Positions 2,074 to 41,682 of a stretch of 41,682 bases of DNA are shown one piece after another. This stretch comes from a virus, in IMG/VR virus record IMGVR_UViG_3300049437_000042, positions 1 to 41,682 of that record. One strand, given 5' to 3'. The notes beneath the pieces were generated by a model. It ran no database searches. It saw nothing but the letters and a program-made list of their open reading frames with translations, and was not told where the DNA came from. Position 1 is the first letter of the stretch. Each line of letters opens with the position of its first letter. The translations under genes and the position numbers were made by a program.

Positions 2074-4683
2074 GTGGTCGACATGATCGCAGGATCGGTC
2101 TTTACCAACATTTTCGGGATGATTCCGCCTGGTGACGACCGAGTGGTCCGGGTGGCCAAGGCTGCGGCGGCGGCCGGGTTCGCCGTGGTCGCCTGCAAAC
2201 CCGGGCAGAAAGTCCCGATGTGCACCCTGACCGCGCGCCAGGCGGTCACAGCCGACCGGCAGGCCAGTGAGGCAGCGGGCCGAAAGGTTCGGCATGCCTG
2301 CGGCATCGCTCACGCCACCACTGACCCCGCAGTGGCTGCTAGGGTGTTCGCCCGCCTGGTCGCGCAGAACGGCCCGGTGAACCTCGGGGTCGAGCTCGGG
2401 GCGTCCCGGATGGTCGTGGTGGACGTCGACACCAGGGAGGAGCGGGAGGCGTTTCTGGCGGACTGGTCGACCGCGAGCGGCACGGATCAGTCCGCTCGGA
2501 CGCCCACGGTGCTGTCCCCCGGTGCGCTCCGGGTCACCGATGGCACACCAGACCCGGTGTGGGTGCACAAGGATGGCGGACACTTCTGGTTCACGCTGCC
2601 CGATGGCGTCACGCTGCCCACCGGGTCGGGAGTGCTCAAGCACCCGTCCGGCTGGACCGTCATGTGGGCTGACCACCAGGTGTTGGTCCCGCCATCGGTA
2701 CGTCCAGAAGGTCCGTACCGGCTGACCGGGCAGGGGGAGCCTGCCCCCGCCTGGTTGACCGACTTGGTGATCATGGAGGCGGACGCCCGAAGTATCCGCA
2801 TGTCCGCCCGCGCTGACCGGGCGTTCGACTCCGGCGATCCACTGGAACGGTGGAGCGCGACCACACCCTGGTCGACCCTGCTCGAACCGGACGGGTGGAC
2901 CGACACCGGACTGGTCGACACCTGTTCATGTCCCATCTGGACGGCACCGGGAGCGCACGCCTCCCCCAAGTCGGCGACCGCTCACGACGTGGGCTGCACC
3001 CGGTTCGACGTCGAGACCGGTTGGGGACCACTGCACGTCTGGACCGACAACCCCCCGCCCTGGCTGGCCGGCCGGAACACCTGGACCAAAGTGGGGTACC
3101 TCTCGGCCCGGGACCACGACGGGAACCACCGGGACGCCATGGTGGCCGTGGGGATCATCGCTCCGGATGCCTCGTTCGACTTTGATCTTGACTTCGAGGT
3201 GCCGGAAGACCCTGCCCCGCAAGAACCGCCCCCGGAACCAGCGGGGGAGCGCTCCCCCGCTCCGACAACCGTGCTGGACCGGCCGGAGGTGGACGAGTTC
3301 GACCTACCGGGCGGCCCCGAACCGGCTCAGCCGGCCGCCCCCGCCTCCCACGCACCGGGTGGGCTGGCCAACCTGCCTGAAGACTTCTGGGCCGCCAGGG
3401 TGGCGCTCAAGCACATCAGAACCGCCAGCCTGGCGATGATGTGCAGCCCGGACGCGTTGCTCGTGGCGACCCTGGCCAGGCTGGCAGCGATGCGTCATCA
3501 CCGGATCGTGCTGGACATCGGACTCGGGGAGACCGGGCTGAACCTGATCGTGTGCCCGGTCGGCCCGTCGTCGTCCGGCAAGGGCATCGCCATGGCCGGA
3601 GCGGCACTGCTGATCCCGCGGGAACTGTGCGCCTCCGGTGCGCACGACGGAATCGGTATCGGGTCTGGTGAGGGCATCGCCGAGGCGTACATGGGCCGTG
3701 AGCAGGTTGACACCGGTGAGACGTACAAATCGGGGGACCGCAAAGGGCAGCCCAAGATGCGGGAGGTTCGCGCGCAGGTGCGACACAACGCCCTGTTCGC
3801 GATGGATGAGGGGCAGGCCCTTGGTCAGATGTCCGCCAGGGCAGGGACCACGATCGTCACGGCTCTGCGGTCGGCTTGGTCATGCGCCACGATCGGTCAG
3901 GCCAACGCCCGCGAGGACACCACCCGCTCCATCCCGGCCGGGACGTACTCGGCTGGGTTCGTGCTGGCCTTCCAACTGGACACCGCCGCTAGCGTGCTGG
4001 CGGACACCGATGGGTTGGCCCAACGTGCCCTCTGGGCGTCAGCCACCCATCCCGGGGTAACCGCGGACATGGTCGAGCACCCCGGGGCGTTGGCGGACGT
4101 CATCACCGGGTGCGACCCGTTCGACGGAGGCGGAGGCGGCATCACGATGACCTTCCCCCTGGAGATCCGGACGGCGTACCGGGAGCATCGGGCCGGCGTG
4201 CTGCGGGGCGAGATCGAACAGGACCCGCTGGACGGGCATGGTCCGCTGGTCCGTGCCAAGGTTGCCGCCCTGCTGGCTCTGCTGGACGGCCGGGTGACCC
4301 CCGCCCGTGAGGACGTCGAACTGGCCGGTGTGGTCTGGCGGACGTCGTGCCGGGTGCGCACCCACCTGGCGGAGCGTTCGCAAACGGTGGCGCAGGAAGC
4401 GGCACGGGCCCTGGCCGTGTCCCGTGCGCTCCCCATCGTCATCGCTCAGCAGAAGATCGAAGAGGGCACCGACAAGCGGGTCGAGCAGTCGGCGCGCACC
4501 CTGTCCCGCCACGTGCACGCTGCGGGCCCGGGGGGTCTGACGCACCGGGACGCCCGCAAGACGATGAAGTCGACCATGCGCGGGCAGTACGACGCCGTCC
4601 GGGACCACGCGGAAGCGATGGGGTGGATCGTGGTTGGCGAGGGGCCTACACCTGGACTGGCGCCAGGGTGTACCGCTCCGTAG
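2074..4683 (+). CDS. Prim-pol (bifunctional primase/polymerase) fused to a D5/DUF3987-like P-loop NTPase
   Basis: 869-aa ORF. N-terminal prim-pol-like signatures: MVVVDVDT, GGHFWF, VLVPPSVRPEGPYRL. A Pro/Glu-rich linker follows. The C-terminal part has P-loop GPSSSGKG and a Walker B-like LFAMDEG. Confidence 0.85.
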   Translation: MVDMIAGSVFTNIFGMIPPGDDRVVRVAKAAAAAGFAVVACKPGQKVPMCTLTARQAVTADRQASEAAGRKVRHACGIAHATTDPAVAARVFARLVAQNGPVNLGVELGASRMVVVDVDTREEREAFLADWSTASGTDQSARTPTVLSPGALRVTDGTPDPVWVHKDGGHFWFTLPDGVTLPTGSGVLKHPSGWTVMWADHQVLVPPSVRPEGPYRLTGQGEPAPAWLTDLVIMEADARSIRMSARADRAFDSGDPLERWSATTPWSTLLEPDGWTDTGLVDTCSCPIWTAPGAHASPKSATAHDVGCTRFDVETGWGPLHVWTDNPPPWLAGRNTWTKVGYLSARDHDGNHRDAMVAVGIIAPDASFDFDLDFEVPEDPAPQEPPPEPAGERSPAPTTVLDRPEVDEFDLPGGPEPAQPAAPASHAPGGLANLPEDFWAARVALKHIRTASLAMMCSPDALLVATLARLAAMRHHRIVLDIGLGETGLNLIVCPVGPSSSGKGIAMAGAALLIPRELCASGAHDGIGIGSGEGIAEAYMGREQVDTGETYKSGDRKGQPKMREVRAQVRHNALFAMDEGQALGQMSARAGTTIVTALRSAWSCATIGQANAREDTTRSIPAGTYSAGFVLAFQLDTAASVLADTDGLAQRALWASATHPGVTADMVEHPGALADVITGCDPFDGGGGGITMTFPLEIRTAYREHRAGVLRGEIEQDPLDGHGPLVRAKVAALLALLDGRVTPAREDVELAGVVWRTSCRVRTHLAERSQTVAQEAARALAVSRALPIVIAQQKIEEGTDKRVEQSARTLSRHVHAAGPGGLTHRDARKTMKSTMRGQYDAVRDHAEAMGWIVVGEGPTPGLAPGCTAP

Positions 4684-4958
4684 GGGGGACCGGCCCATGT
4701 CTCCGTGGGGGACCGGGGGGACCGGGGGGACCGGTCCCCCACACACACAAAAAAATTCGTGGGAGCGGTCCCAAATCCTTTAGAAATAAACTCTCTCTCT
4801 CTACTCTCTTATAATATAAAAGAGCAGGTCAGGGGCTGTGTGAGGTAAATGCACAGTATGGTTATCGATATAACTGAGAGTCACTGAGAGAGTCACTTTT
4901 AGTGTCGGAGGCAGATTTTCTCTCCGAGTCGTGGGGGACCGGTCCCCCACGGTCCCCC
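4684..4958. promoter_or_regulatory. Iteron cluster flanking an AT-rich segment (candidate replication origin)
   Basis: GGGGGACCGG-type repeats lie at 4684..4693 and in tandem with 9-bp period at 4707, 4716 and 4725. The last one completes the 16-bp palindrome GGGGGACCGGTCCCCC (4725..4740). The same palindrome recurs at 4933..4948, followed by GGTCCCCC at 4951..4958. Between them (4741..4930) the sequence is conspicuously AT-rich (AAAAAAATT, TTTAGAAATAAA, CTCTCTCTCT, TTATAATATAAAAG) in an otherwise GC-rich genome. No credible ORF is present. Confidence 0.45.
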
Positions 4959-4988
4959 ATGAAGGCGCTCACCACTCCTGGGGTGTAA

Positions 4989-6093: not shown

Positions 6094-6320
6094 TCCGGCT
6101 CCTGCCATGGGTGCTGGGCTTGGGCAGCCTCGCCTGTTTCTCGGTCGCCCTGGTGCTGAACCTGCGTGAACACCTGCGGGCCCCGTGGGTGGACCTGTCG
6201 GGACCTGGTCGAGACCGCTTGAACGGCACAATTAGTCAGCTTTGGCAGGTTATTCCACCATATCGGGCACTAGTGTTGAGGGTGTCTGACGTGTCTGACC
6301 AGGAAGTTGACCAATGGTGA
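6090..6320 (+). CDS. Small membrane protein (hypothetical)
   Basis: GTG start in a GTGA overlap with the previous stop. N-terminal hydrophobic segment LLPWVLGLGSLACFSVALVL. The 3' part is lower-GC and contains a tandem 9-mer, so its coding status there is doubtful. Confidence 0.45.
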   Translation: MIRLLPWVLGLGSLACFSVALVLNLREHLRAPWVDLSGPGRDRLNGTISQLWQVIPPYRALVLRVSDVSDQEVDQW

Positions 6321-6751
6321 GCCGGAATCCCGAGCGTGACCGGGAGATCTTCCGGGCGTTCTGTCTCGGTGAGCAGGTAGACGTCCTAGCAGAACGCCAT
6401 GCCCTGACGGTGAGCCGTATCCGCCAGGTGGTGGCAGTGCAGCGCGGTCGGCTTCCGGGCATGTCGGCAGCGGAGACCAGGGAAGAACTCAAGGTTCAGT
6501 TGGATGACCTACGCCGGCAGCTTCACGCCATCGTCGACTCCCCTCCGGCCATTGCCGAGAGGGAGTACGACGATGAAGGTCGGGTCACGGCCGTCAAGCT
6601 TGACCACTCCGGGCGGATCGCTGCCGCTCGCCAGATCGTGGCGGTGCAGAACCGGATGGCCAAGATGCTTGGGCTAGACAGTCCCGAGCAAGTGGAGGCG
6701 ACCACCACGGTCCGCTACGAACTGGTTGGGGTAGACCCGGAGGAACTGTGA
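6314..6751 (+). CDS. Terminase small subunit (candidate)
   Basis: 145 aa. It lies immediately upstream of the large terminase and overlaps it by 4 nt. It has an N-terminal HTH-like segment (LAERHALTVSRIRQVV) followed by a predicted helical region. Confidence 0.65.
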   Translation: MVSRNPERDREIFRAFCLGEQVDVLAERHALTVSRIRQVVAVQRGRLPGMSAAETREELKVQLDDLRRQLHAIVDSPPAIAEREYDDEGRVTAVKLDHSGRIAAARQIVAVQNRMAKMLGLDSPEQVEATTTVRYELVGVDPEEL

Positions 6752-8127
6752 CCGCCCGCACGCTGACGCACCGGTACGCCCCCCGCGGGGCGTGCCGGTC
6801 AGTCATGTCGGCCCGTGACGGGGAAGTGCTGCTCTCCGGCCCGGCGGGCACGGGCAAGAGCAGGGCAGCGTTGGAAAAGCTCCACTACCTGATGTTGAAG
6901 TACCCGCAGGCACGGGGGCTGATCCTGCGGAAGACACAGGTTTCGCTCGGGTCTACCGCCCTGGTCACCTGGCGCGAGCACGTGATCCCGGAGGCCCTGC
7001 TCTCCGGTGAAGTCTGGTTCTACGGCGGGTCGGGTGAGGAGCCTGCGCAGTACCGCTACCGCAACGGCTCACGCGTGATGATCGGAGGAATGGACAATCC
7101 AACAAAGATCATGTCATCGGAGTACGACGTGATCTATGTCCAGGAAGCGATAGAACTCACCGAGGCTGATTGGGATCATGCGTCGTCCCGTCTGCGCAAC
7201 GGGCGCATGCCCTACCAGCAGATGATTGCCGACACGAACCCGAGTACCCCGGTGCACTGGCTGAAGCAGCGAGGCAACCGAGGGGACGTCCGGATTCTGG
7301 AGTCCCGACACACGGACAATCCGGTGCTGTACCGCGACGACGGCAGCTTGACCCTGCGTGGTCAGGCGTACATGGCGATCCTGGACCGGCTGACCGGCCC
7401 CCGCCGGGCCCGGTTGCGTGACGGCAAGTGGGTGGCTGCGGAAGGCCAGATATGGGAGGGATGGGACGAATCGATACACCTGGTCGACCCGTTCCCAATC
7501 CCCGAGGATTGGCGCCGGGTATGGAGTGTCGACTTTGGATACACTCATCCGTTTGTGCTGCAAATGTGGGCACTCGATCCGGACGGTCGGCTCGTGCTGT
7601 ACCGCGAGATCTTCCGAACCAAGCGCCTGGTGGAGGAGCACGCGTACGACGTCATGGAATGCGTGAGCCGGCCCGATCCGGACTACGTGCACCAGGGCAG
7701 CGAACGGCAACGGGCCTACCAGGGCCGGATCTGGACGGAGCGCCGACCGGACTGGTTGGTGGCCGACCACGACGCAGAGGGGCGCGCCACCCTGGAACGG
7801 GAACTCGGCATGAGCACCCGGAAAGCCCACAAGGCAGTGGGGGACGGCCTGCAAGCGGTCGCCAGCCGGCTGAAGCCCGTGGGTGATGGCCGCCCCCGCC
7901 TCGTAATCCAGCGGGGGGCGACCGTACACCGGGATCAGGACCTACTCGACGCCATGAAGCCAGCCAGCACGGTGGAGGAGATTCCTGGGTACGTGTGGGC
8001 GGACGTGAAGCGCAAGGAAGAGCCGGTCAAGGTGGAAGACGATGGGTGCGACACCATGCGGTATGTGGTCATGGAGCTTGACCGGCCGTCCGGGTCGGGC
8101 ATCCGGGTGATGGGCGGGCGGAGGTAG
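6748..8127 (+). CDS. Terminase large subunit
   Basis: 459 aa. Walker A LLSGPAGTGKSRAA, followed by a C-terminal nuclease-like half. Position upstream of the head genes fits. Confidence 0.92.
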   Translation: MTARTLTHRYAPRGACRSVMSARDGEVLLSGPAGTGKSRAALEKLHYLMLKYPQARGLILRKTQVSLGSTALVTWREHVIPEALLSGEVWFYGGSGEEPAQYRYRNGSRVMIGGMDNPTKIMSSEYDVIYVQEAIELTEADWDHASSRLRNGRMPYQQMIADTNPSTPVHWLKQRGNRGDVRILESRHTDNPVLYRDDGSLTLRGQAYMAILDRLTGPRRARLRDGKWVAAEGQIWEGWDESIHLVDPFPIPEDWRRVWSVDFGYTHPFVLQMWALDPDGRLVLYREIFRTKRLVEEHAYDVMECVSRPDPDYVHQGSERQRAYQGRIWTERRPDWLVADHDAEGRATLERELGMSTRKAHKAVGDGLQAVASRLKPVGDGRPRLVIQRGATVHRDQDLLDAMKPASTVEEIPGYVWADVKRKEEPVKVEDDGCDTMRYVVMELDRPSGSGIRVMGGRR

Positions 8128-31083: not shown

Positions 31084-31316
31084 CCGGGTGGGGGCTGTTC
31101 TGGTCAGCGTTCGCTGCCCTTGGGCTGACCGCCGAGTTCATCGCGCTGTTCAACCGGAGCGCGGGGGACACCGCATCGGAGAACGTGTGGAAGGTGCTCC
31201 GGATCGCTGACCCCCGCCCCTCGTGGCTGTTCTGGCCTCTGCGGGCGGGGGTGGCCCTGGCCTGCATCTGGTTGGCCGGTCACTTCTCGATGGGGTGGTG
31301 GACCACCGGGGGCTGA
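31080..31316 (+). CDS. Two-TM membrane protein (hypothetical, lysis-associated)
   Basis: 78 aa with ATGA coupling and two hydrophobic segments. Confidence 0.6.
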   Translation: MTGWGLFWSAFAALGLTAEFIALFNRSAGDTASENVWKVLRIADPRPSWLFWPLRAGVALACIWLAGHFSMGWWTTGG

Positions 31317-31330
31317 GCTGCCCGACAAGA

Positions 31331-31363
31331 AACGGCCCCGGTGCGAGGTGCACCGGGGCCGTT
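31331..31363. terminator. Bidirectional intrinsic terminator at the convergence of late (+) and early (-) arms
   Basis: Perfect 14-bp stem AACGGCCCCGGTGC / GCACCGGGGCCGTT with a 5-nt loop. Confidence 0.75.
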
Positions 31364-31375
31364 CGTGTGTGATCG

Positions 31376-31474
31376 CTACCGTCGCGAGTCGTACCGGATG
31401 ATCGCGTACCCGATCAAGGCCGCTACCACGAGGCTGAGCACCGCCGACCCCGGAGTCAGCATGCGGGAGAGCAT
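31376..31474 (-). CDS. 32-aa membrane peptide (hypothetical)
   Basis: MLSRMLTPGSAVLSLVVAALIGYAIIRYDSRR. It starts 5 nt after the upstream stop. Confidence 0.3.
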   Translation of the reverse strand: MLSRMLTPGSAVLSLVVAALIGYAIIRYDSRR

Positions 31475-31479
31475 GAGGC

Positions 31480-31707
31480 TCACCGGGGGCTCACCCCGAA
31501 CAGCCGGACACACGAGGTATACCCGGGGCAAGCAATCAACCACCCCCACTCCGACAGGTCCGACCTGATCCATCCGTGTTGGTGGGCGTACGTGGTGAAC
31601 TCGAACGTGCCGGTGCCGTTGCTGGACGCATGCACAACGGGTTGCCCGGTGCGCCGCTCAATCGTGACCAACCACCGGGGCGGAAGCGGCTCTCTGGTGA
31701 GGGTCAT
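31480..31707 (-). CDS. Hypothetical protein
   Basis: 75 aa from the ATG at 31707 (ATGA overlap with the upstream ORF). An alternative ATG is at 31719. Confidence 0.5.
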   Translation of the reverse strand: MTLTREPLPPRWLVTIERRTGQPVVHASSNGTGTFEFTTYAHQHGWIRSDLSEWGWLIACPGYTSCVRLFGVSPR

Positions 31708-31913
31708 CGGCTGGTCCATCCTTTTGGGTGGCCGTAGTTGGGATCGGTGCGCGACCCACCGGAGAAGTCATCGGGTACCGCCTGCCTGCTCGTGTCGGTC
31801 GCCTGCTGCCCGCTCGACCCCTGCGCGGTACCCGCCCGGTGCCTGCCGTCGCGGGCAGTTGCTGCCCGCTCGATCCGGGTGCGGTCACCGTACGGTGCGT
31901 GGTGCTTGCCCAT
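31704..31913 (-). CDS. Basic, low-complexity 69-aa ORF (uncertain)
   Basis: Strong SD (GGAGGGGATC) before the ATG at 31913, and an ATGA overlap with the next gene. However, it is encoded over DNA-level repeats (TCGAGCGGGCAGCA is read in two different frames). Confidence 0.35.
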   Translation of the reverse strand: MGKHHAPYGDRTRIERAATARDGRHRAGTAQGSSGQQATDTSRQAVPDDFSGGSRTDPNYGHPKGWTSR

Positions 31914-31968
31914 GATCCCCTCCGGGTGCTGTGTAGAACGTACACAGCGTACCACTGCCTGTCCACGA

Positions 31969-32092
31969 GCGGGTACCCGCTCACTGCCCGCCGACCTACT
32001 ACGGGTACCCGCTCGCTGTCCACACTGAGCGGGTACCCGCTTTGTACATGCTCCGAACAAAGCGGGTACCCGCTCAGTGCCCGGGTACCCGC
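31969..32092. repeat. Array of five GCGGGTACCCGC palindromes (intergenic part of a larger cluster)
   Basis: Perfect 12-mers at 31969, 32029 and 32062. 11/12 copies at 32001 and 32081. Flanks extend several copies to GAGCGGGTACCCGCTC. The copies at 32029 and 32062 are the arms of a 17-bp inverted repeat with an 11-nt spacer. Confidence 0.9.
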
Positions 32093-32108
32093 TCGTGTCT
32101 GACGTAGG

Positions 32109-33236
32109 TCAGGGGTTCACCACCTCGCGCGCACGGCGCTCACCGAGTCCGGTCACGCGGGCGCAGTGCTCGCCGTCCATCTGCATGATGTACCCCCGGC
32201 GCTCCATTGCGCGGGTAATCCGGGGCCTCACGGCACTCTCCTGCACGACCCCGTCATGCTCGTTCACCCAGGTCAGGATGTGTTCAGCCCATCGGGTCGG
32301 CATGGTCAGGGAGCCGTACGCGGGCAGCGGGCGGGCGGGTACCCGCTCCTGCCGCATGTCCGCGAGCGTGCGCGGGCGGGGTCCCTTCGCTGAGCGGGTA
32401 TGCATGGGCTGCCCGCTCGCTGCCCGCTCGGATACCTCTTCCCGGGAAGCTGCCCGCCACTCGATGCCCGCTCCCGAGGTGTGCACCCGGGCATGATCGA
32501 TGCCGTGAGACATCCGGAGCACCGACCGGTCGATGCGAGCACCGTGCATGCCCGCATCGCCGTCACAGAAGTACGCGCCGATGTCCGGCGACTTCACGAC
32601 GTGCTCCGGGTGCGCGGGCACGATGTTGCAGTGCCCGCGCGGGTGCTCGCGCATGGCGTCGACCACCGCTGCCTGCCTGCCCGACAGGCGGGTACCCGCC
32701 CGGAGGGGAGCGGGTACCCGCTCGCTTGCGCGCGCACTGAGATCGTCATCGATACCCGCTTCGCGCGCACGCTCGGAAAGGATGATGGCCTTGGCCAGCC
32801 CCCGTGCCTCTGCCCGTGCCTCTTCCTGCGTCGCGAACGGGCGGGGGCTGGACACCTGGTAGGTGCCGCGCCGTACCTCGACCGTGAAGACCCTCTCCAG
32901 TCGGGTCACGATGACCTCATACCGCCAAGGACTCGGGAAGGTCCAGGACATCTGACTGCCCACGAGGGGGAAGTCGTCCAGCCAATGCGACTCCCGCTCC
33001 GGGGCGGGGGCGGACAACTGGCAGGACCAGGCGAACCAGCCGATCGTCTCGCCGGTCTCTTCCACGTCCCACCGGAAGCACGCGGGAGCGGCAGCACACC
33101 GAGCATGGGCCGGCACCGTGACCCGGCTGTTGAGACCCACGAGCTTGACTTGCGCCCCCCTGTACTCGTTGTGTACACCAACGGCGTTGAATGTGGCCAT
33201 CTGGCCGAGTTCGGGAAGCCAGGGTGTTTGTGTCAT
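32109..33236 (-). CDS. 375-aa putative DNA-binding protein (ORFan regulator candidate), leaderless
   Basis: The ATG at 33236 lies 6 nt after a -10 hexamer and has no SD. wHTH-like segments: LSGRQAAVVDAMREHP and C-terminal ILTWVNEHDGVVQESAVRPRITRAMERRGYI. Three perfect GCGGGTACCCGC copies lie inside the gene in two different reading frames. Confidence 0.65.
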   Translation of the reverse strand: MTQTPWLPELGQMATFNAVGVHNEYRGAQVKLVGLNSRVTVPAHARCAAAPACFRWDVEETGETIGWFAWSCQLSAPAPERESHWLDDFPLVGSQMSWTFPSPWRYEVIVTRLERVFTVEVRRGTYQVSSPRPFATQEEARAEARGLAKAIILSERAREAGIDDDLSARASERVPAPLRAGTRLSGRQAAVVDAMREHPRGHCNIVPAHPEHVVKSPDIGAYFCDGDAGMHGARIDRSVLRMSHGIDHARVHTSGAGIEWRAASREEVSERAASGQPMHTRSAKGPRPRTLADMRQERVPARPLPAYGSLTMPTRWAEHILTWVNEHDGVVQESAVRPRITRAMERRGYIMQMDGEHCARVTGLGERRAREVVNP

Positions 33237-33242
33237 GGGGTA

Positions 33243-33272
33243 AGTGTACGTTGTGCACACTCGGGAGCGCAA
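33243..33272 (-). promoter_or_regulatory. Sigma-70-like promoter giving a leaderless transcript
   Basis: Minus strand reads TTGCGC - 18 nt - TACACT - 6 nt - ATG. Confidence 0.55.
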
Positions 33273-33278
33273 ACGCAG

Positions 33279-33312
33279 AACACCCCCGCCTGGTTGACCG
33301 GGCGGGGGTGTT
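33279..33312 (-). terminator. Intrinsic terminator after the 33315..33614 gene
   Basis: Perfect 12-bp stem AACACCCCCGCC / GGCGGGGGTGTT with a 10-nt loop. Confidence 0.6.
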
Positions 33313-33314
33313 GA

Positions 33315-33614
33315 TCAGAAGTGTCTGCGGGCGGTGTCGACCAGGTCCGTCAACCACGAGGGGGATTCGGGACCGTTCTCGCTGAAGAACAACCACGAGC
33401 GAGGCGCCTGTCCGGTCTGCCCGTTCCGTTTCACGGCGAAACCCCTCACCTCAATTTGCGCGAGGGACGGCAGTTCGCCGTTGCGAGATCCGATCGTGAC
33501 GACAGCTTTGGTCGGGGAGAACTGCGCCGTGCCTCGGTACACCACCACCGGGTACCCGACCAAGTGGAACGTCACCTCAACCTTACGGGTGTGCTCGTGT
33601 ACAACAGCTTCCAT
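33315..33614 (-). CDS. Hypothetical protein
   Basis: 99 aa from an ATG preceded by GGAAGGA. Confidence 0.6.
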   Translation of the reverse strand: MEAVVHEHTRKVEVTFHLVGYPVVVYRGTAQFSPTKAVVTIGSRNGELPSLAQIEVRGFAVKRNGQTGQAPRSWLFFSENGPESPSWLTDLVDTARRHF

Positions 33615-33677
33615 GGGGGTGTCCTTCCAAACAGACCAGGGCCGGCACACCGTGTGCCGGCCCTGATTCAGAGGGGT

Positions 33678-34289: not shown

Positions 34290-34395
34290 GTACTCACCTC
34301 CCGTCGTGTAGACGCTGGCCTAACCCCTCACCAGCACATCGAGGCGCACAGTACTCTGACGCACTTGCGCGTGTGCATCACCCCGATTTCCCGCG

Positions 34396-34474
34396 TGGGA
34401 TGGACAGGATTTGAACCTGTGACCTCGGAACATCTAGCCCGGGTGTCCGTGCTCTGCCACTGAGCTACCATCCC
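34396..34474 (-). tRNA. tRNA-like gene 1 (canonical acceptor, D and T arms; expanded anticodon arm)
   Basis: Minus strand reads GGGATGG TA GCTCAGTGGCAGAGC A [CGGACACCCGGGCTAGATGTTCCG] AGGTC ACAGGTTCAAATCCTGT CCATCCC A. The bracketed arm is 24 nt where 17 are expected. No CCA is encoded. Confidence 0.5.
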
Positions 34475-34556
34475 TTGGGTACTCGGGATCGGCAACCCCC
34501 GAGTACCTTCATCCGGTCCTGTGTACTTCGCCATACCGGGAGGCGCCATTGCCCCG

Positions 34557-34694
34557 TGCCCGCTGAAGGGTTCGAACCCCCAACCATGCTCGGTACCGCC
34601 GTATCGGCGGTACTTCCCGTGTCGACCCGGTACTTGACGGGCGATACGACGGTGTTGTTCCGAGCATTGCTCTGCCACATTGAGCTAAACGGGC
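34557..34694 (-). ncRNA. tRNA-like gene 2 with ~66-nt insertion in place of the anticodon loop
   Basis: Acceptor GCCCGTT / AGCGGGC, D arm TAGCTCAATGTGGCAGAGCA, T arm GGGGGTTCGAACCCTTC. The perfect 8-bp stem ATGCTCGG / CCGAGCAT encloses a structured insert that includes the hairpin GTACCGCC-GATAC-GGCGGTAC. Confidence 0.5.
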
Positions 34695-34700
34695 TTAGTA

Positions 34701-34759
34701 GTACCGGGTGGTGGTTGCAGGGCAGCTATCACAATGGAAAGTGCGCCACCACCCGGTAC
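34701..34759 (-). ncRNA. Long perfect hairpin in the non-coding locus
   Basis: 14-bp stem GTACCGGGTGGTGG (34701..34714) / CCACCACCCGGTAC (34746..34759) with a 31-nt loop. Confidence 0.5.
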
Positions 34760-34883
34760 CGTGCCGTCTTTCCGGCTGTCATCGGTTTATGCTCGACAGC
34801 GACCTTTCACCCCTCCGTTCGTTCCGCTAGTACCCCTCTGGGGCCCGGAGCGTTACCTACTTCGGTAAGGGCTACTCATGTCG

Positions 34884-34978
34884 CGGGTATCAGAGGATTC
34901 GAACCTCTGCTCTTCAGTTCCGTTCCCCTCTCGCCAGAGGAGAGTCAGGAACCGTGTGCGCCAATACACCAACTACCC
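34884..34978 (-). ncRNA. tRNA-like gene 3 (95 nt; anticodon-type hairpin on an extended helix)
   Basis: Acceptor GGGTAGT / GATACCC (one mismatch), D arm GTGTATTGGCGCAC, T arm AGAGGTTCGAATCCTCT. The hairpin CTCTC-CTCTGGC-GAGAG would present CUG, but it is stacked on an extra GTTCC / GGAAC helix with a TGA bulge. Confidence 0.45.
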
Positions 34979-35021
34979 TGTTGCCCGGACTCGGGAGAGC
35001 GACCAACCTATCCGTATTTCG

Positions 35022-35090
35022 CTTCCTGGTGAGGATTCGAACCTCACAGGCCCGTAAACGGACTCCCCTGGTAGGTACCTACCCTAGGAA
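35022..35090 (-). ncRNA. tRNA-like element 4 (weak)
   Basis: T arm TGAGGTTCGAATCCTCA, acceptor TTCCTAG / CCAGGAA (one mismatch), atypical D hairpin GTAG-GTAC-CTAC, and a GTCCG-TTTA-CGGGC hairpin instead of a 7-nt anticodon loop. Confidence 0.3.
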
Positions 35091-35246
35091 ACCGGCTCTC
35101 TTACGCCCAACCGTGCATGACGTCTGTGTCAGAGCCGGACACGCACCGGATCGCCAGTTACGACCTGGTGACACCAGCTGACCGGGACACCCTGAACCGG
35201 CCTACCAATGGAGAACCCACTCCGTCGCGAATGGTTCTCTCCGGCG

Positions 35247-35287
35247 GGAAGGGATCGGGTGGACGGGTTGAACACCCGATCCCTTCC
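35247..35287 (-). ncRNA. Long perfect hairpin in the non-coding locus
   Basis: 15-bp stem GGAAGGGATCGGGTG / CACCCGATCCCTTCC with an 11-nt loop. Confidence 0.5.
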
Positions 35288-35445
35288 GGGGGAAGACCTT
35301 ACGGTGATCACGAGGTGCGGGTAGCTACCGAGATGGTCTCTCGGCTTCAACATCTCATCTCACGATCACCGTATGGAATTCTCAAAATCCGTGTGTACCG
35401 GTCGCCTCCGGCCCTTGTGGGGCCCTTGCCTTCCGAACAAGGGGA

Positions 35446-35474
35446 ACGCTACCAGGTGCCCCCGAATGCGTCAA
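35446..35474 (-). promoter_or_regulatory. Candidate promoter for the structured-RNA locus
   Basis: Minus strand reads TTGACG - 17 nt - TAGCGT, directly after the exonuclease stop. Confidence 0.4.
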
Positions 35475-35488
35475 GTCACTTACAGATG

Positions 35489-37555
35489 CTAGTTTTCGAT
35501 CTCGCGCAACCGAGCCTTGGATGCGTCCCCGTGCTGGTCAGCCGACCACAGACCCCGAGCCTTCATCACCTTCCAGATCTGGATCAGCCGATCCTTGGTC
35601 CCTGCCTCCAGGATGTGCCGCAGGATGTCGCACCGGATGCACCGGTCACCGAACTCGTACACCGGTGACCCGCACGGACACCGCACGATGACCTCTCCGG
35701 GCAGAACGTAGGTTCCTAGACCGTCCGCCCACACCTCGCCGGTATCTGGGCTCAGAGGACCGTACAGACCCATGACCGCAGGTACCCGCTCTTCCACGTG
35801 GGGGTCCCACGGTGAGGCGGGCTCCTCCACCGCGGGGGGCTCGACCACGGTCGGGTCAACCGGCCACTCCGGCGCCTTCCGGGACTCGTGCTCGACCCGT
35901 TCCGCGGCCAGCCGGGTGAAGACCTCCTCCCTAGCCGGTTCGGGGGTGACGACCGGAGCGGCGACCGCCTTGAGGTGAGCGACGATGGGACGCCCCCGCT
36001 CCTCAATCTCGGCCGGCGTGACCACCCGATGCTGCTGGACGCACACGTCAGCCCCCGACGCAGTGACCCCGTTTGAGTTGATGATCGGTTTGGTGCACGC
36101 CAGGCACCAGATCTGCGTCTTACCTTCCTGGTCCGGTTCCGGTCGGTGCGTCGGATCGAGCGCGAAGAAGCGTGCCACGGGAGCCGGGTCTGGCGTGACC
36201 ACGACCGGTTCCTCTTCACTGACCGAGGTGAGTTCCGGCTCGACCCGGGTACGCCGGCCCCGGGGCGGGGCGCCGATGCACCCGCGCTTGTGCGTGACCT
36301 TCCCGTTCCGGCATGGTCGCTCACACACCGGGCACGGTTCGCCGTCCGGTACGTGGACCCACTCCGACCCGATGCCGCTCCGGTGCAACGCATGCTCCCC
36401 CTCCACCACGCACGGAGTGTGGTACGACGGGTGTCGAGCGGGACAGGTGGGCGCCGGTTCGTCCGGTGCGGTCAAGACCATCGTCACCGGTTCGTCCACG
36501 ATCAATGACCCCTCGATCGTGAGGGTGCCGGCCACGGAGACTGGTTCAGCCGGCCGGGAGAACCGGACCGGGGCGTTCGGGAGATCGAGTTCATCCGGGC
36601 CGAACGCCCCGGTCACCTGGTCCAGCGGCACCGATACGGCCACGTCCTTCCGGCTCCTCCACTCCCGCACCGTGCAGGCCAGTGCCAGCGAGGCTCGACC
36701 CGCGGTCAGGTCGACCGCATGCAGGGTGGCCGTGACATGATCTTCCGGGTCCTTCCGGATGGGGATGTGCGCGATCAGGGCCACGTCCTTGCGGAGGCGT
36801 TCGGGCAGCGGTTCGTACGTCCGGGTGCCCGGAACCCACATACCCATGGCGTCCACGTAGCAGGCTTGCTGACCCGCTATCTCCTGCCAGCCGTACCCGA
36901 GTTCGTCTCCGGTCTTGATGTCCAGATCGACGTACTGACCAGGGTGCAGCGTCACCAGGTGGCCGGTACCCATCCGGATCGTCAGTGCCCGGGTCACCCT
37001 GGCCAACCGGTCGAACGTGCCCGCCACGTTCCATTGGGGTACCGCCACCACCCGTTCGATGAACTCGGGGGACATGCGCAGTCCGGAGCGGGACATCAAC
37101 TCGGAGTACGCCCGCACCTCCGGCGCCCACAACTCGGGGACCGAGATGTCGTGCCCGCGGTCTCCCTGCTCGCAGAACGCGTGGATGGCCGACCCGAGCA
37201 GGGCCCGTGCCTTGGCTCCCGCAGCAGTCTGCGCCTCCCGGACCAGTTGGTTCAGGGCGTTCCGGTCGGTCGGGTCGGTCGCTGCGATCATCGCGTACAA
37301 CGATGGGTTGCTGACCAAGCCCAGCACGGTCATCCGAAGGTCCCACAAGTGCAGGAGGTGATCCCCGGAAGCGGCCTTGACCAGCGTGGTGACCCGGGTG
37401 AACACCCGGTCGAAGCGCTCCGGGTCGTCCGGGTCGGGCAGGATGTACCGGCCGTAGTGGTCGCGCCGGATGGCCCGGGGGTCAGCCTCGATCCGGGGCC
37501 GTGCGGGGGTAGGCCCGGGGTCGGGAAGATCAAACATGTCATCAATCTCAGCCAT
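35489..37555 (-). CDS. PD-(D/E)XK (RecB/Cas4-like) exonuclease fused to a Cys-rich C-terminal domain
   Basis: 688 aa from an ATG preceded by GAGAGG. Nuclease motifs: GSAIH, GTFD, VDLDIKTG, QQACY. The C-terminal ~350 aa carries several CxxC-type clusters (CPVCERPC, CLAC, CPCG...CIRC). Confidence 0.75.
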   Translation of the reverse strand: MAEIDDMFDLPDPGPTPARPRIEADPRAIRRDHYGRYILPDPDDPERFDRVFTRVTTLVKAASGDHLLHLWDLRMTVLGLVSNPSLYAMIAATDPTDRNALNQLVREAQTAAGAKARALLGSAIHAFCEQGDRGHDISVPELWAPEVRAYSELMSRSGLRMSPEFIERVVAVPQWNVAGTFDRLARVTRALTIRMGTGHLVTLHPGQYVDLDIKTGDELGYGWQEIAGQQACYVDAMGMWVPGTRTYEPLPERLRKDVALIAHIPIRKDPEDHVTATLHAVDLTAGRASLALACTVREWRSRKDVAVSVPLDQVTGAFGPDELDLPNAPVRFSRPAEPVSVAGTLTIEGSLIVDEPVTMVLTAPDEPAPTCPARHPSYHTPCVVEGEHALHRSGIGSEWVHVPDGEPCPVCERPCRNGKVTHKRGCIGAPPRGRRTRVEPELTSVSEEEPVVVTPDPAPVARFFALDPTHRPEPDQEGKTQIWCLACTKPIINSNGVTASGADVCVQQHRVVTPAEIEERGRPIVAHLKAVAAPVVTPEPAREEVFTRLAAERVEHESRKAPEWPVDPTVVEPPAVEEPASPWDPHVEERVPAVMGLYGPLSPDTGEVWADGLGTYVLPGEVIVRCPCGSPVYEFGDRCIRCDILRHILEAGTKDRLIQIWKVMKARGLWSADQHGDASKARLREIEN

Positions 37556-40811: not shown

Positions 40812-40840
40812 AGTATGTCATGCACAGCGTCTGTCCGCAA
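40812..40840 (-). promoter_or_regulatory. Leftward early promoter (proximal)
   Basis: Minus strand reads GATGCCCAGAG TTGCGG - 17 nt - CATACT, then CGACACCCGGAGG and the ATG at 40782. Confidence 0.5.
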
Positions 40841-41476: not shown

Positions 41477-41669
41477 GGCACGTGAGCGCTGGATCAGGGT
41501 CTACCCGGACCGACGGTGGCCTAGGGAGTGGACCTACCAGTGCCGGATCTGCGGGCACACCCCTGCGAGACTCGATCTCACCTGGACCAACAGCGGTGCC
41601 GCTGCCGATGCGGGTTGTAGGCACCTCTTCGTGTACCACGACAACCAAGACGTCACGCCCACGCAGTGA
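41469..41669 (+). CDS. Small Cys-containing protein (possible Zn-ribbon)
   Basis: 66 aa from a GTG that overlaps the previous gene by 8 nt. YQCRICGH ... GCRH. Its 3' end is duplicated at 1..114 by the terminal overlap. Confidence 0.5.
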   Translation: MSEARERWIRVYPDRRWPREWTYQCRICGHTPARLDLTWTNSGAAADAGCRHLFVYHDNQDVTPTQ

Positions 41670-41682
41670 TGGGACCGGTGTT
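41556..41682. repeat. Terminal direct repeat, copy 2 (identical to 1..127)
   Basis: Exact 127-bp identity with the first 127 bases of the window. Confidence 0.9.

Follow-up and report, generated by a model that had tools for sequence, protein, structure and literature searches.

What is the function of a dense cluster of one short palindrome that lies partly beside and partly inside the gene of an orphan protein? This question is raised by the IMG/VR virus record IMGVR_UViG_3300049437_000042 (positions 1 to 41,682), a phage-like contig of actinophage type with 65% GC, whose whole length of 41,682 nucleotides (nt) is referred to here as the window. An earlier note had interpreted the cluster as the multi-site binding array of a dedicated regulator encoded by the adjacent gene of 375 amino acids (aa; 32109-33236, minus strand). 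That interpretation is partly supported by our analysis, and the observation itself is solid and extends further than the note had seen. The array is real, restricted to a single locus, conserved at the DNA level and recurrent across phage lineages with an invariant core. We tentatively favor, with somewhat less than even confidence, the reading that the region 31770-32725 (~0.95 kb) is a cis-acting site array for a sequence-specific DNA-binding factor, which would serve as an operator and, where the leftward-transcribed arm of the genome ends, as a roadblock or insulator. When binding sites are clustered in a phage genome, they typically denote an origin, a packaging site, a centromere, or an immunity operator; as a rule, they are used by a single phage group and by the protein which that group encodes. 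Here, at least four lineages with no detectable common DNA-binding protein each have one array per genome built on the same invariant 10-bp core, and coding sequence can accommodate the array.

Architecture of the Palindrome Array

The 12-bp palindrome GCGGGTACCCGC occurs in six exact copies (31969, 32029, 32062, 32335, 32688, and 32710) and in two copies with one mismatch (32001 and 32081), so that the cluster spans 31969-32721, as the earlier note had described; a further one-mismatch copy lies outside it at 35778. This clustering is non-random, given that 0.32 sites are expected when one mismatch is allowed and that nine sites were reached in none of 100 shuffles. The degenerate copies reported at 31771 and 31824 are also present, with three mismatches each. 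The claim that the cluster is confined to one locus holds as well: the 10-bp core CGGGTACCCG is found nine times in the window, eight times in the cluster and just once elsewhere (33549), and copies of the extended 16-mer GAGCGGGTACCCGCTC with up to two mismatches are confined to 31967-32723. The repeat measures 12-16 nt, with spacings of 19-33 nt. Beyond what had been described before, we detected a half-site motif, CTGCCCGCTC, which occurs four times in one orientation and exclusively in the array region (31806, 31862, 32409, and 32420). The half-site contains AGCGG, the Bacillus Chi sequence; a Chi-like site, which was considered, would leave the invariant GTAC center unexplained.

Five of the palindromes compose an intergenic array on 31964-32097 with a nested dyad symmetry that is likewise new to this analysis. 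The inner arms (32023-32045 and 32057-32079) match perfectly over 23 nt around an 11-nt center, forming the inverted repeat 32023-32079, and the outer arms (31964-31986 and 32075-32097) are 91% complementary. When folded as RNA, the minus strand of 31900-32125 reaches a free energy (dG) of -128 kcal/mol, with a z-score of -7.9. Within the 375-aa gene, a palindrome pair occupies 32686-32736, where GGCGGGTACCCGCC (32687-32700) and GAGCGGGTACCCGCTC (32708-32723) are followed by TGCGCGCGCA (32727-32736), and a third palindrome lies at 32333-32348, with GCGGGTACCCGC at 32335-32346. Between them, a half-site cluster (32392-32473) comprises GAGCGGGTA (32392), the CTGCCCGCTC copies at 32409 and 32420, CTGCCCGC (32450), and CCCGCTC (32467).

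On its other side, the array extends into a gene led by a Shine-Dalgarno sequence that encodes a basic 69-aa protein and heads a small operon (31704-31913, minus strand). This gene contains both degenerate palindromes, the CTGCCCGCTC copies at 31806 and 31862, and an inverted repeat composed of GCGGGCAG, 3 nt, and CTGCCCGC (31851-31869); a 55-nt duplication is found at 31791-31901. The leader or promoter of the operon carries the 8-bp inverted repeat noticed earlier (31928-31948; CTGTGTA-5 nt-TACACAG), which is real. The proximal palindrome (31967-31982) lies immediately next to the candidate promoter of the operon. The promoter proposed in the earlier note, TGGACA-17-TACGTT, did not survive comparison with the closest relative of the locus, the Logan contig L008, in which TGGGCG and TAGAAC stand in its place. 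An alternative candidate element, TACGCT at 31946-31951, is conserved there.

Conservation in the Closest Relative

Among 5.8 billion clustered proteins, the 375-aa protein has one close relative, with 80% protein identity, which is encoded on L008. This contig preserves the hairpin, the promoter with its leaderless ATG, the 375-aa gene, the array, and the small operon, and has a different upstream gene. It harbors nine sites with up to one mismatch, eight in the matching region (four intragenic and four intergenic) and one at position 3986. Between the two sequences, one intergenic unit is missing from L008 and one extra intragenic site is present, a gain and loss of units that is expected of a selected array and not of a fixed structure.

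The intragenic copies provide the clearest view of the level at which conservation operates. They are translated in two frames, as ERVPA twice and as AGTR once, as had been reported, and none of the 18 codons beneath the three palindromes is changed in L008, compared with 18% synonymous differences over the gene as a whole (P about 0.03). The stretch with the intragenic pair (32686-32736) sits in a block that is 100% identical in both. The protein segments concerned are coil-like linkers modeled with low confidence, with a predicted local distance difference test (pLDDT) score below 50 (aa 163-263 and 275-322). The use of two frames together with these coil-like linkers indicates that selection acts on the DNA.

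Recurrence of the Core in Other Phage Lineages

Pairs of GCGGGTACCCGC placed 5-35 nt apart were found in seven IMG/VR contigs, compared with 0, 1, and 0 contigs for three composition-matched control palindromes. By scanning IMG/VR and metagenomes, we observed core arrays in a minimum of three high-GC phage lineages (B, C, and D) besides that of the window (A). In lineage B, nine perfect copies lie inside the N-terminal part of a MuF-like gene that follows the portal gene. The lineage C array, on contigs of ~16 kb, begins at the stop codon of the large terminase gene; its first palindrome after that gene is invariant and its spacers diverge. In lineage D, the array occupies a convergent junction beside an 82-aa gene resembling helix-turn-helix (HTH) genes, on units of ~17 kb. 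Elsewhere, the array of contig L077 abuts an HNH gene, and the units are tandemly duplicated as 27- and 33-nt repeats in L018 and L022. The strong copies form a single cluster per lineage locus examined, with the exception of one stray core copy in L123. No homologue of the 375-aa protein, nor of its neighbors, is present on any of the lineage B, C, and D array contigs.

The strongest regularity concerns the core itself. Across 12 array regions from at least four lineages, every perfect palindrome of the family keeps CGGGTACCCG while the flanks vary, and no compensatory variant is found. Since the core never covaries, recognition of a sequence is favored over a generic hairpin.

Searches for the motif in bacteria gave a different picture. 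A genome scan for paired palindromes returned 43 stretches, and the ~30 that were inspected are mostly coding Gly/Tyr/Pro tandem repeats or the arms of single hairpins, with a few elements that resemble repetitive extragenic palindromic (REP) sequences (one Nocardioides and one Planctomycetota genome). A host-wide repeat found no support in the genomes scanned, none of the inspected stretches being linked to this phage. Many metagenome matches were likewise discarded as unrelated, being tandem repeats or GC clusters in contigs of 18-31% GC with the appearance of fungal mitochondrial DNA. In the literature searched, no mention of the 12-mer or of the 16-mer was found.

Several side observations arose from these scans. 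The second palindrome, TGCGCGCGCA, for which 0.11 copies are expected, has a single copy in the window, at a distance of 5 nt from an array palindrome; it is also found at positions 1734 and 1767 of L008, 7204 of L020, and 3195 of L076; its pairing with the array palindrome recurs in the unrelated lineage D, and its alternating CG run could adopt the Z-DNA form. Four Streptomyces genomes (L025 at 3895, L032 at 7457, L048 at 2294, and L053 at 813) share, in near-identical context, a non-coding hairpin of the form CACCGG-GCGGGTACCCGC-15 nt-GCGGGTACCCGC-C(C/T)GGTG, which may be a conserved RNA or terminator element. In contigs L069, L070, L075, and L098 (18-46% GC), pairs of the 12-mer lie in GC clusters within very AT-rich DNA; these are unrelated to the phage arrays and resemble the mobile GC clusters of fungal mitochondrial genomes. 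Two copies of the same array, 17,132 bp apart, lie on the contig WSSedA2C3DRAFT_1000032 (L067 and L103; 19,130 bp), indicating a concatemer-type assembly of a phage-like unit of ~17.1 kb that encodes tail proteins and a 259-aa terminase-like ATPase. Lineages C and D, which occur in the same metagenome, have one 208-aa protein in common: it is 55-58% identical between the ~16-kb contigs L115 (Ga0209293_10000040, lineage D) and L119 (Ga0209293_10000049, lineage C), which may share a host or be a helper-satellite pair.

The Adjacent 375-aa Gene and Protein

The gene upstream of the array is organized as an autonomous unit, as the earlier note had proposed. Its candidate promoter, TTGCGC-18-TACACT (33243-33272, minus strand), ends 6 nt before an ATG that is not preceded by a Shine-Dalgarno sequence and is thus a leaderless start; L008 presents the corresponding TTGCGT-18-TACACT-6-ATG. 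Further upstream, after the 99/111-aa gene, lies a GC-rich hairpin (33279-33312, minus strand) that had been taken for a terminator. The hairpin stands, with 16-nt arms that are 94% complementary, and it is terminator-like; it lacks a T run and was not called by the terminator scan. A different hairpin occupies the matching place in L008, and the succession of hairpin, promoter, and leaderless gene is kept in spite of the different upstream gene.

The nature of the protein could not be established by similarity. Single-sequence and profile searches of Pfam, PHROGs, NCBIfam, PADLOC, and PDB sequences produced no match, including none to an HTH, other DNA-binding, Rep, or ParB family. Two AlphaFold runs gave pLDDT values of 39 and 54, with the N-terminal domain alone moderately confident, and Foldseek comparison of the model with the PDB, one of the checks suggested earlier, retrieved nothing below an E-value of 0.38. 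The prediction for the protein is a β-rich N-terminal domain (aa 1-160), then a His/Cys-rich insert set between long linkers of low confidence, and finally a C-terminal helix-helix-β-hairpin segment (pLDDT about 40-60). The one pointer to DNA binding is this low-confidence segment, and the winged-helix-like DNA-binding segments claimed in the earlier note were not recovered as any family, PDB, or fold match.

An exhaustive HMMER search of 1.84 billion representatives added seven distant unannotated relatives (130-264 aa, 28-33% identical) that start with MTQT and share the N-terminal domain and a short C-terminal segment; an IMG/VR search with the N-terminal domain revealed no further family members. 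At the two readable distant-relative loci, L012 and L016, the gene is the first of an operon that diverges from a small HTH-like gene, and a palindrome array of this kind is absent. The expectation of the earlier note that gene and palindromes would travel together therefore fails in both directions, with the gene lacking the array in L012 and L016 and the array lacking the gene in lineages B-D, although relatives of only 28-33% identity could differ in specificity.

What the Array Might Do

The invariant core, the restriction to one locus, the conservation amid diverging spacers, and the tolerance of coding positions together point to a sequence-specific cis element. Protein binding, an effect on transcription, and the identity of the binder are the parts that we infer. 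In this scheme, a factor would recognize the invariant core CGGGTACCCG, with the half-site GAGCGGG(T/C)A, and, once occupied, the sites would together form an extensive nucleoprotein block where the leftward arm ends. As the proximal site abuts the promoter region of the small operon, the block would serve as an operator for this last operon, comprising the 69-aa, 79-aa, and membrane-peptide genes, and the intragenic and intergenic copies would constitute a roadblock or insulator ahead of the convergent junction with the late/lysis arm. The only local candidate for the binder is the adjacent 375-aa orphan; because arrays of the same core occur in unrelated lineages devoid of this protein, we consider a common factor, most simply a host protein, no less probable.

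A number of observations weigh against a sequence-specific binding array. The 375-aa candidate has no detectable DNA-binding family or fold, and the promoter of its gene carries no array site. No protein is common to the window and lineages B or D (BLASTP E-value below 1e-4; permissive phmmer), and by the same searches the window and lineage C have only distant structural proteins in common. The inverted repeats of half-sites have spacers of 0, 3, and 13 nt, a variability that suits hairpins better than a rigid dimer. A helical phasing of the half-sites is unsupported, given that the peaks at 11, 22, 33, and 44 nt vanish once the L018 tandem repeats are removed (0.29 observed vs. 0.27 expected). 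The 16-mer also occurs singly, as terminator-like hairpins, in unrelated contigs. Moreover, two loops are reverse-complemented between the window and L008, indicating that the repeats form or recombine as hairpins in vivo: the 11-nt loop at 32046-32056 matches L008 2467-2477 at 10 of 11 positions as the reverse complement and at two of 11 directly, and the 5-nt loop at 31936-31940, within the short inverted repeat of the operon leader, matches L008 2552-2556 at all five positions as the reverse complement. To judge by sequence, these are hairpin-mediated micro-inversions ("flip-flop"), and they represent a clean natural case of such events in phage DNA.

Among the alternatives, the dedicated regulator of the earlier note is doubtful. 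It would be a dimer expressed from its own leaderless promoter, autoregulating by roadblock and repressing the small downstream operon, and it draws on the adjacency of gene and array and their joint retention in L008, on the autonomy of the gene unit (hairpin, conserved promoter, and leaderless ATG), on the predicted C-terminal helix-helix-β-hairpin-helix, of which the distant homologues keep a similar "RRGYV" segment, and on flexible linkers that could permit variable half-site spacing. The protein is nevertheless an orphan with no match to an HTH or DNA-binding family and no recognizable fold of that kind, its C-terminal model being of low confidence; its own promoter is without a site, the L012 and L016 homologue loci have no such array, and lineages B, C, and D have same-core arrays with no homologue. 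This last distribution leads to the view, which we hold to be rather doubtful, that a trans-acting factor common to otherwise unrelated high-GC (actino)phage lineages recognizes the core CGGGTACCCG, with one array per phage recruiting or titrating this factor. A host protein would be the simplest candidate, as no phage protein is shared. The array, often at a convergent junction or operon end, might then act as a barrier to replication forks or transcription where the arms meet, or as a sponge for a host regulator. If true, actinophages would have a cis element that recurs across lineages, a kind not so far described for them. A common, possibly host, factor would also imply a shared dependency or manipulation point among phages of high-GC bacteria, and would supply a short, portable DNA element for its pull-down; binding by the adjacent orphan would instead define a new DNA-binding family. 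An element that acts by structure alone appears unlikely. Here, DNA or RNA hairpins or cruciforms would serve as a multi-hairpin terminator, an insulator, or a 3' mRNA stabilizer at operon ends with no dedicated protein, and the palindromes would have spread by local tandem duplication and been tolerated in disordered coding linkers. The very strong fold, the perfect 23-nt-arm hairpin that begins 30 nt past the stop codon, the two loop inversions, the position of the lineage C and D arrays right after a stop codon or at convergent junctions, the tandem-duplicated units (L018, L022, and 31791-31901), and the single terminator-like hairpins of the 16-mer elsewhere all speak for it. Against it, the stems never covary and the same 10-bp core stands at every site in every lineage, T tracts are absent, one-orientation half-sites are unable to pair, and same-composition control palindromes form no such arrays. 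Furthermore, three to four perfect copies lie in the open reading frame (ORF) and nine in the lineage B MuF-like gene, where terminators would be harmful.

A maintenance module, in which a RepA-like initiator or a centromere-binding protein and its iterons or centromere would support extrachromosomal prophage replication or partition in a phage with no integrase, seems quite unlikely. Its layout resembles that of integrase-less cluster A mycobacteriophages (PMC7157519), no integrase was detected among the window ORFs scanned, and repeated sites lie in and next to the gene (three intragenic and five downstream), as the lambda origin lies inside gene O. Yet beyond the layout no further hallmark of such a module is present. 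The protein shows no Rep or ParB family similarity, no ParA was found among the ORFs scanned (some small ORFs being outside the scan), and the array has no AT-rich stretch near it, as GC drops no lower than 50% in any 40-nt window of 31300-33400. The one good DnaA-box match, at 32016, is missing from L008, lineages B, C, and D have the array without the gene, and a far more origin-like locus is located at 4683-4960. This locus, non-coding and directly after the primase-polymerase gene, has the lowest GC of the window (25% in 40 nt near 4779), in an AT-rich spacer flanked by GGGGGACCGG(TCCCCC) repeats, with tandem GGGGGACCG units on one side (4683-4742) and inverted copies of GGGGGACCGGTCCCCC on the other (4930-4960); its repeat differs from the array palindrome. 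It has what looks like classic replication-origin anatomy, which argues against the array as a lytic origin. A terminase recognition site of the pac or cosB type is highly improbable, even with the lineage C array at the large terminase stop codon, the lineage B MuF-like gene beside the portal and terminase genes, and the L077 array by an HNH gene. The candidate small and large terminase genes of the window (6314-8127) are distant from the array at 31.8-32.7 kb (~16 kb on the circular map and ~24 kb within the window), and lineages A and C have small terminases of different families (Mor-like HTH vs. Terminase_6), so that no common site is expected. Other identities were rejected or disfavored. 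For a ParABS partition locus, neither a ParA ATPase nor a ParB-type family was found in the 375-aa protein or its neighbors, the small ORFs of the window having been partly scanned. A protelomerase target would conflict with the asymmetric 11-nt loop at the center of the large inverted repeat and with the lack of a Pfam match in the adjacent protein. Clustered regularly interspaced short palindromic repeats (CRISPR) have repeats of at least 23 nt and unique spacers of ~30 nt; as a mini-array of this kind, the locus has a repeat of only 12-16 nt, spacings of 19-33 nt, and no Rfam match. REP sequences, bacterial interspersed mosaic elements (BIME), and intrinsic terminators are disfavored by the invariant core, the missing T tract, the three perfect intragenic copies, and the single locus per genome. 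A repressor-operator system like those of temperate actinophages (phiC31 repressor c, cluster A stoperators) would call for a recognizable DNA-binding repressor and genome-wide operator copies, neither of which was seen, with strong copies within 31967-32723 and the core once elsewhere.

Comparison with Known Systems

The sequence-specific binding array that we favor has partial counterparts. The phage P1 repA gene is flanked by iteron arrays. RepA-type extrachromosomal prophage replicons are carried by the cluster A mycobacteriophages Miko, Rachaly, and Jeeves (PMC7157519). As in RepA replicons, an autonomous unit with a gene of ~350 aa is placed centrally, beyond the genes for virion and lysis proteins and in the opposite transcriptional orientation, with repeated sites in and immediately downstream of the gene and no integrase. 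Unlike them, the locus shows no RepA sequence or fold similarity, no ParAB, and no AT-rich element, its sites are palindromes in place of direct iterons, and the same sites occur in phages without the gene. The resemblance to the lambda origin in gene O lies in dyad-symmetric binding sites embedded in a tolerant part of a coding sequence. The lambda origin combines four evenly spaced iterons with an adjoining AT-rich stretch and a recognizable initiator, whereas here the spacing is irregular, no AT-rich stretch is present, and the origin-like locus is elsewhere (4683-4960).

In having a highly conserved short site in many copies in one actinophage, the locus also recalls the inverted repeats bound by the phiC31 repressor c and the stoperators of cluster A phages. 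Some copies of those sites lie inside genes or at gene ends and are able to block elongation; such sites are scattered through the early region or the entire genome, and each immunity group has its own. In contrast, the strong copies described here occupy one 0.95-kb locus, and their core is common to unrelated lineages. Similarities with REP and BIME families (PMC3733652) include short GC-rich palindromes in alternating orientation, located after stop codons or at convergent junctions and capable of forming hairpins. REP sequences are, however, dispersed genome-wide, extragenic, and linked to REP-associated tyrosine transposases (RAYT), whereas we observed one locus per genome, intragenic copies, and no transposase. 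Finally, as in the Tus-Ter and RTP-Ter systems and in repressor-array barriers, putative tight binding sites are clustered where transcription arms, and possibly forks, converge, with no homology to Tus or RTP here.

Genome Context and Neighboring Genes

The contig derives from a JGI metagenome (3300048564, Ga0496022_0000422). Its positions 1-127 and 41556-41682 are identical. This 127-bp terminal direct repeat, which had escaped the earlier note, bears the signature of a k-mer overlap and indicates a circular or concatemeric assembly with a genome of ~41,555 bp. Neither DNA nor protein comparison revealed close relatives among 50,697 GenBank phages; the nearest described phage proteins are 40-46% identical and belong to Streptomyces phage Dagobah (portal) and mycobacteriophages (polymerase).

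The rightward arm encodes an HTH_17 protein, DNA polymerase I, a primase-polymerase, endonuclease VII, terminase, portal, capsid, tail, and tape-measure proteins, endolysin, holin, and a GDSL esterase, and ends near 31316. The leftward arm, starting near 40821, carries small genes, a helicase, an exonuclease, a tRNA-Ala, a 155-aa gene, and the 99/111-aa gene, followed by the 375-aa gene, the array, and three small genes, the last of which stops at 31376. Hence, the array marks the 3' end of the leftward arm, just ahead of the convergent junction with the late/lysis arm. Its placement at the junction of the early and late arms is correct as to proximity; more exactly, the junction is one of convergent 3' ends, and the array lies over the last leftward-arm genes. 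A hairpin with 14-nt perfect arms at the junction itself (31331-31363) is likely a bidirectional terminator. The cumulative GC skew reaches its maximum at 31-32 kb, although gene orientation confounds this measure.

The last genes of the leftward arm (31376-31719, minus strand) encode a 79-aa protein assigned to phrog_8324 (31480-31719) and an overlapping membrane-like peptide of ~35 aa (31376-31483), both kept in L008. At the other end of the 375-aa unit, the 99/111-aa gene (33315-33650) contains the sole core copy found outside the cluster (33549) and is missing from L008, in which hairpin and promoter come straight after the 155-aa gene. Further upstream, the ~1 kb at 34475-35480, between the tRNA-Ala (34395-34474) and the exonuclease gene, has no convincing ORF; its counterpart in L008 (positions 1-540) looks tRNA-like by eye, although a single tRNA was called in the window.

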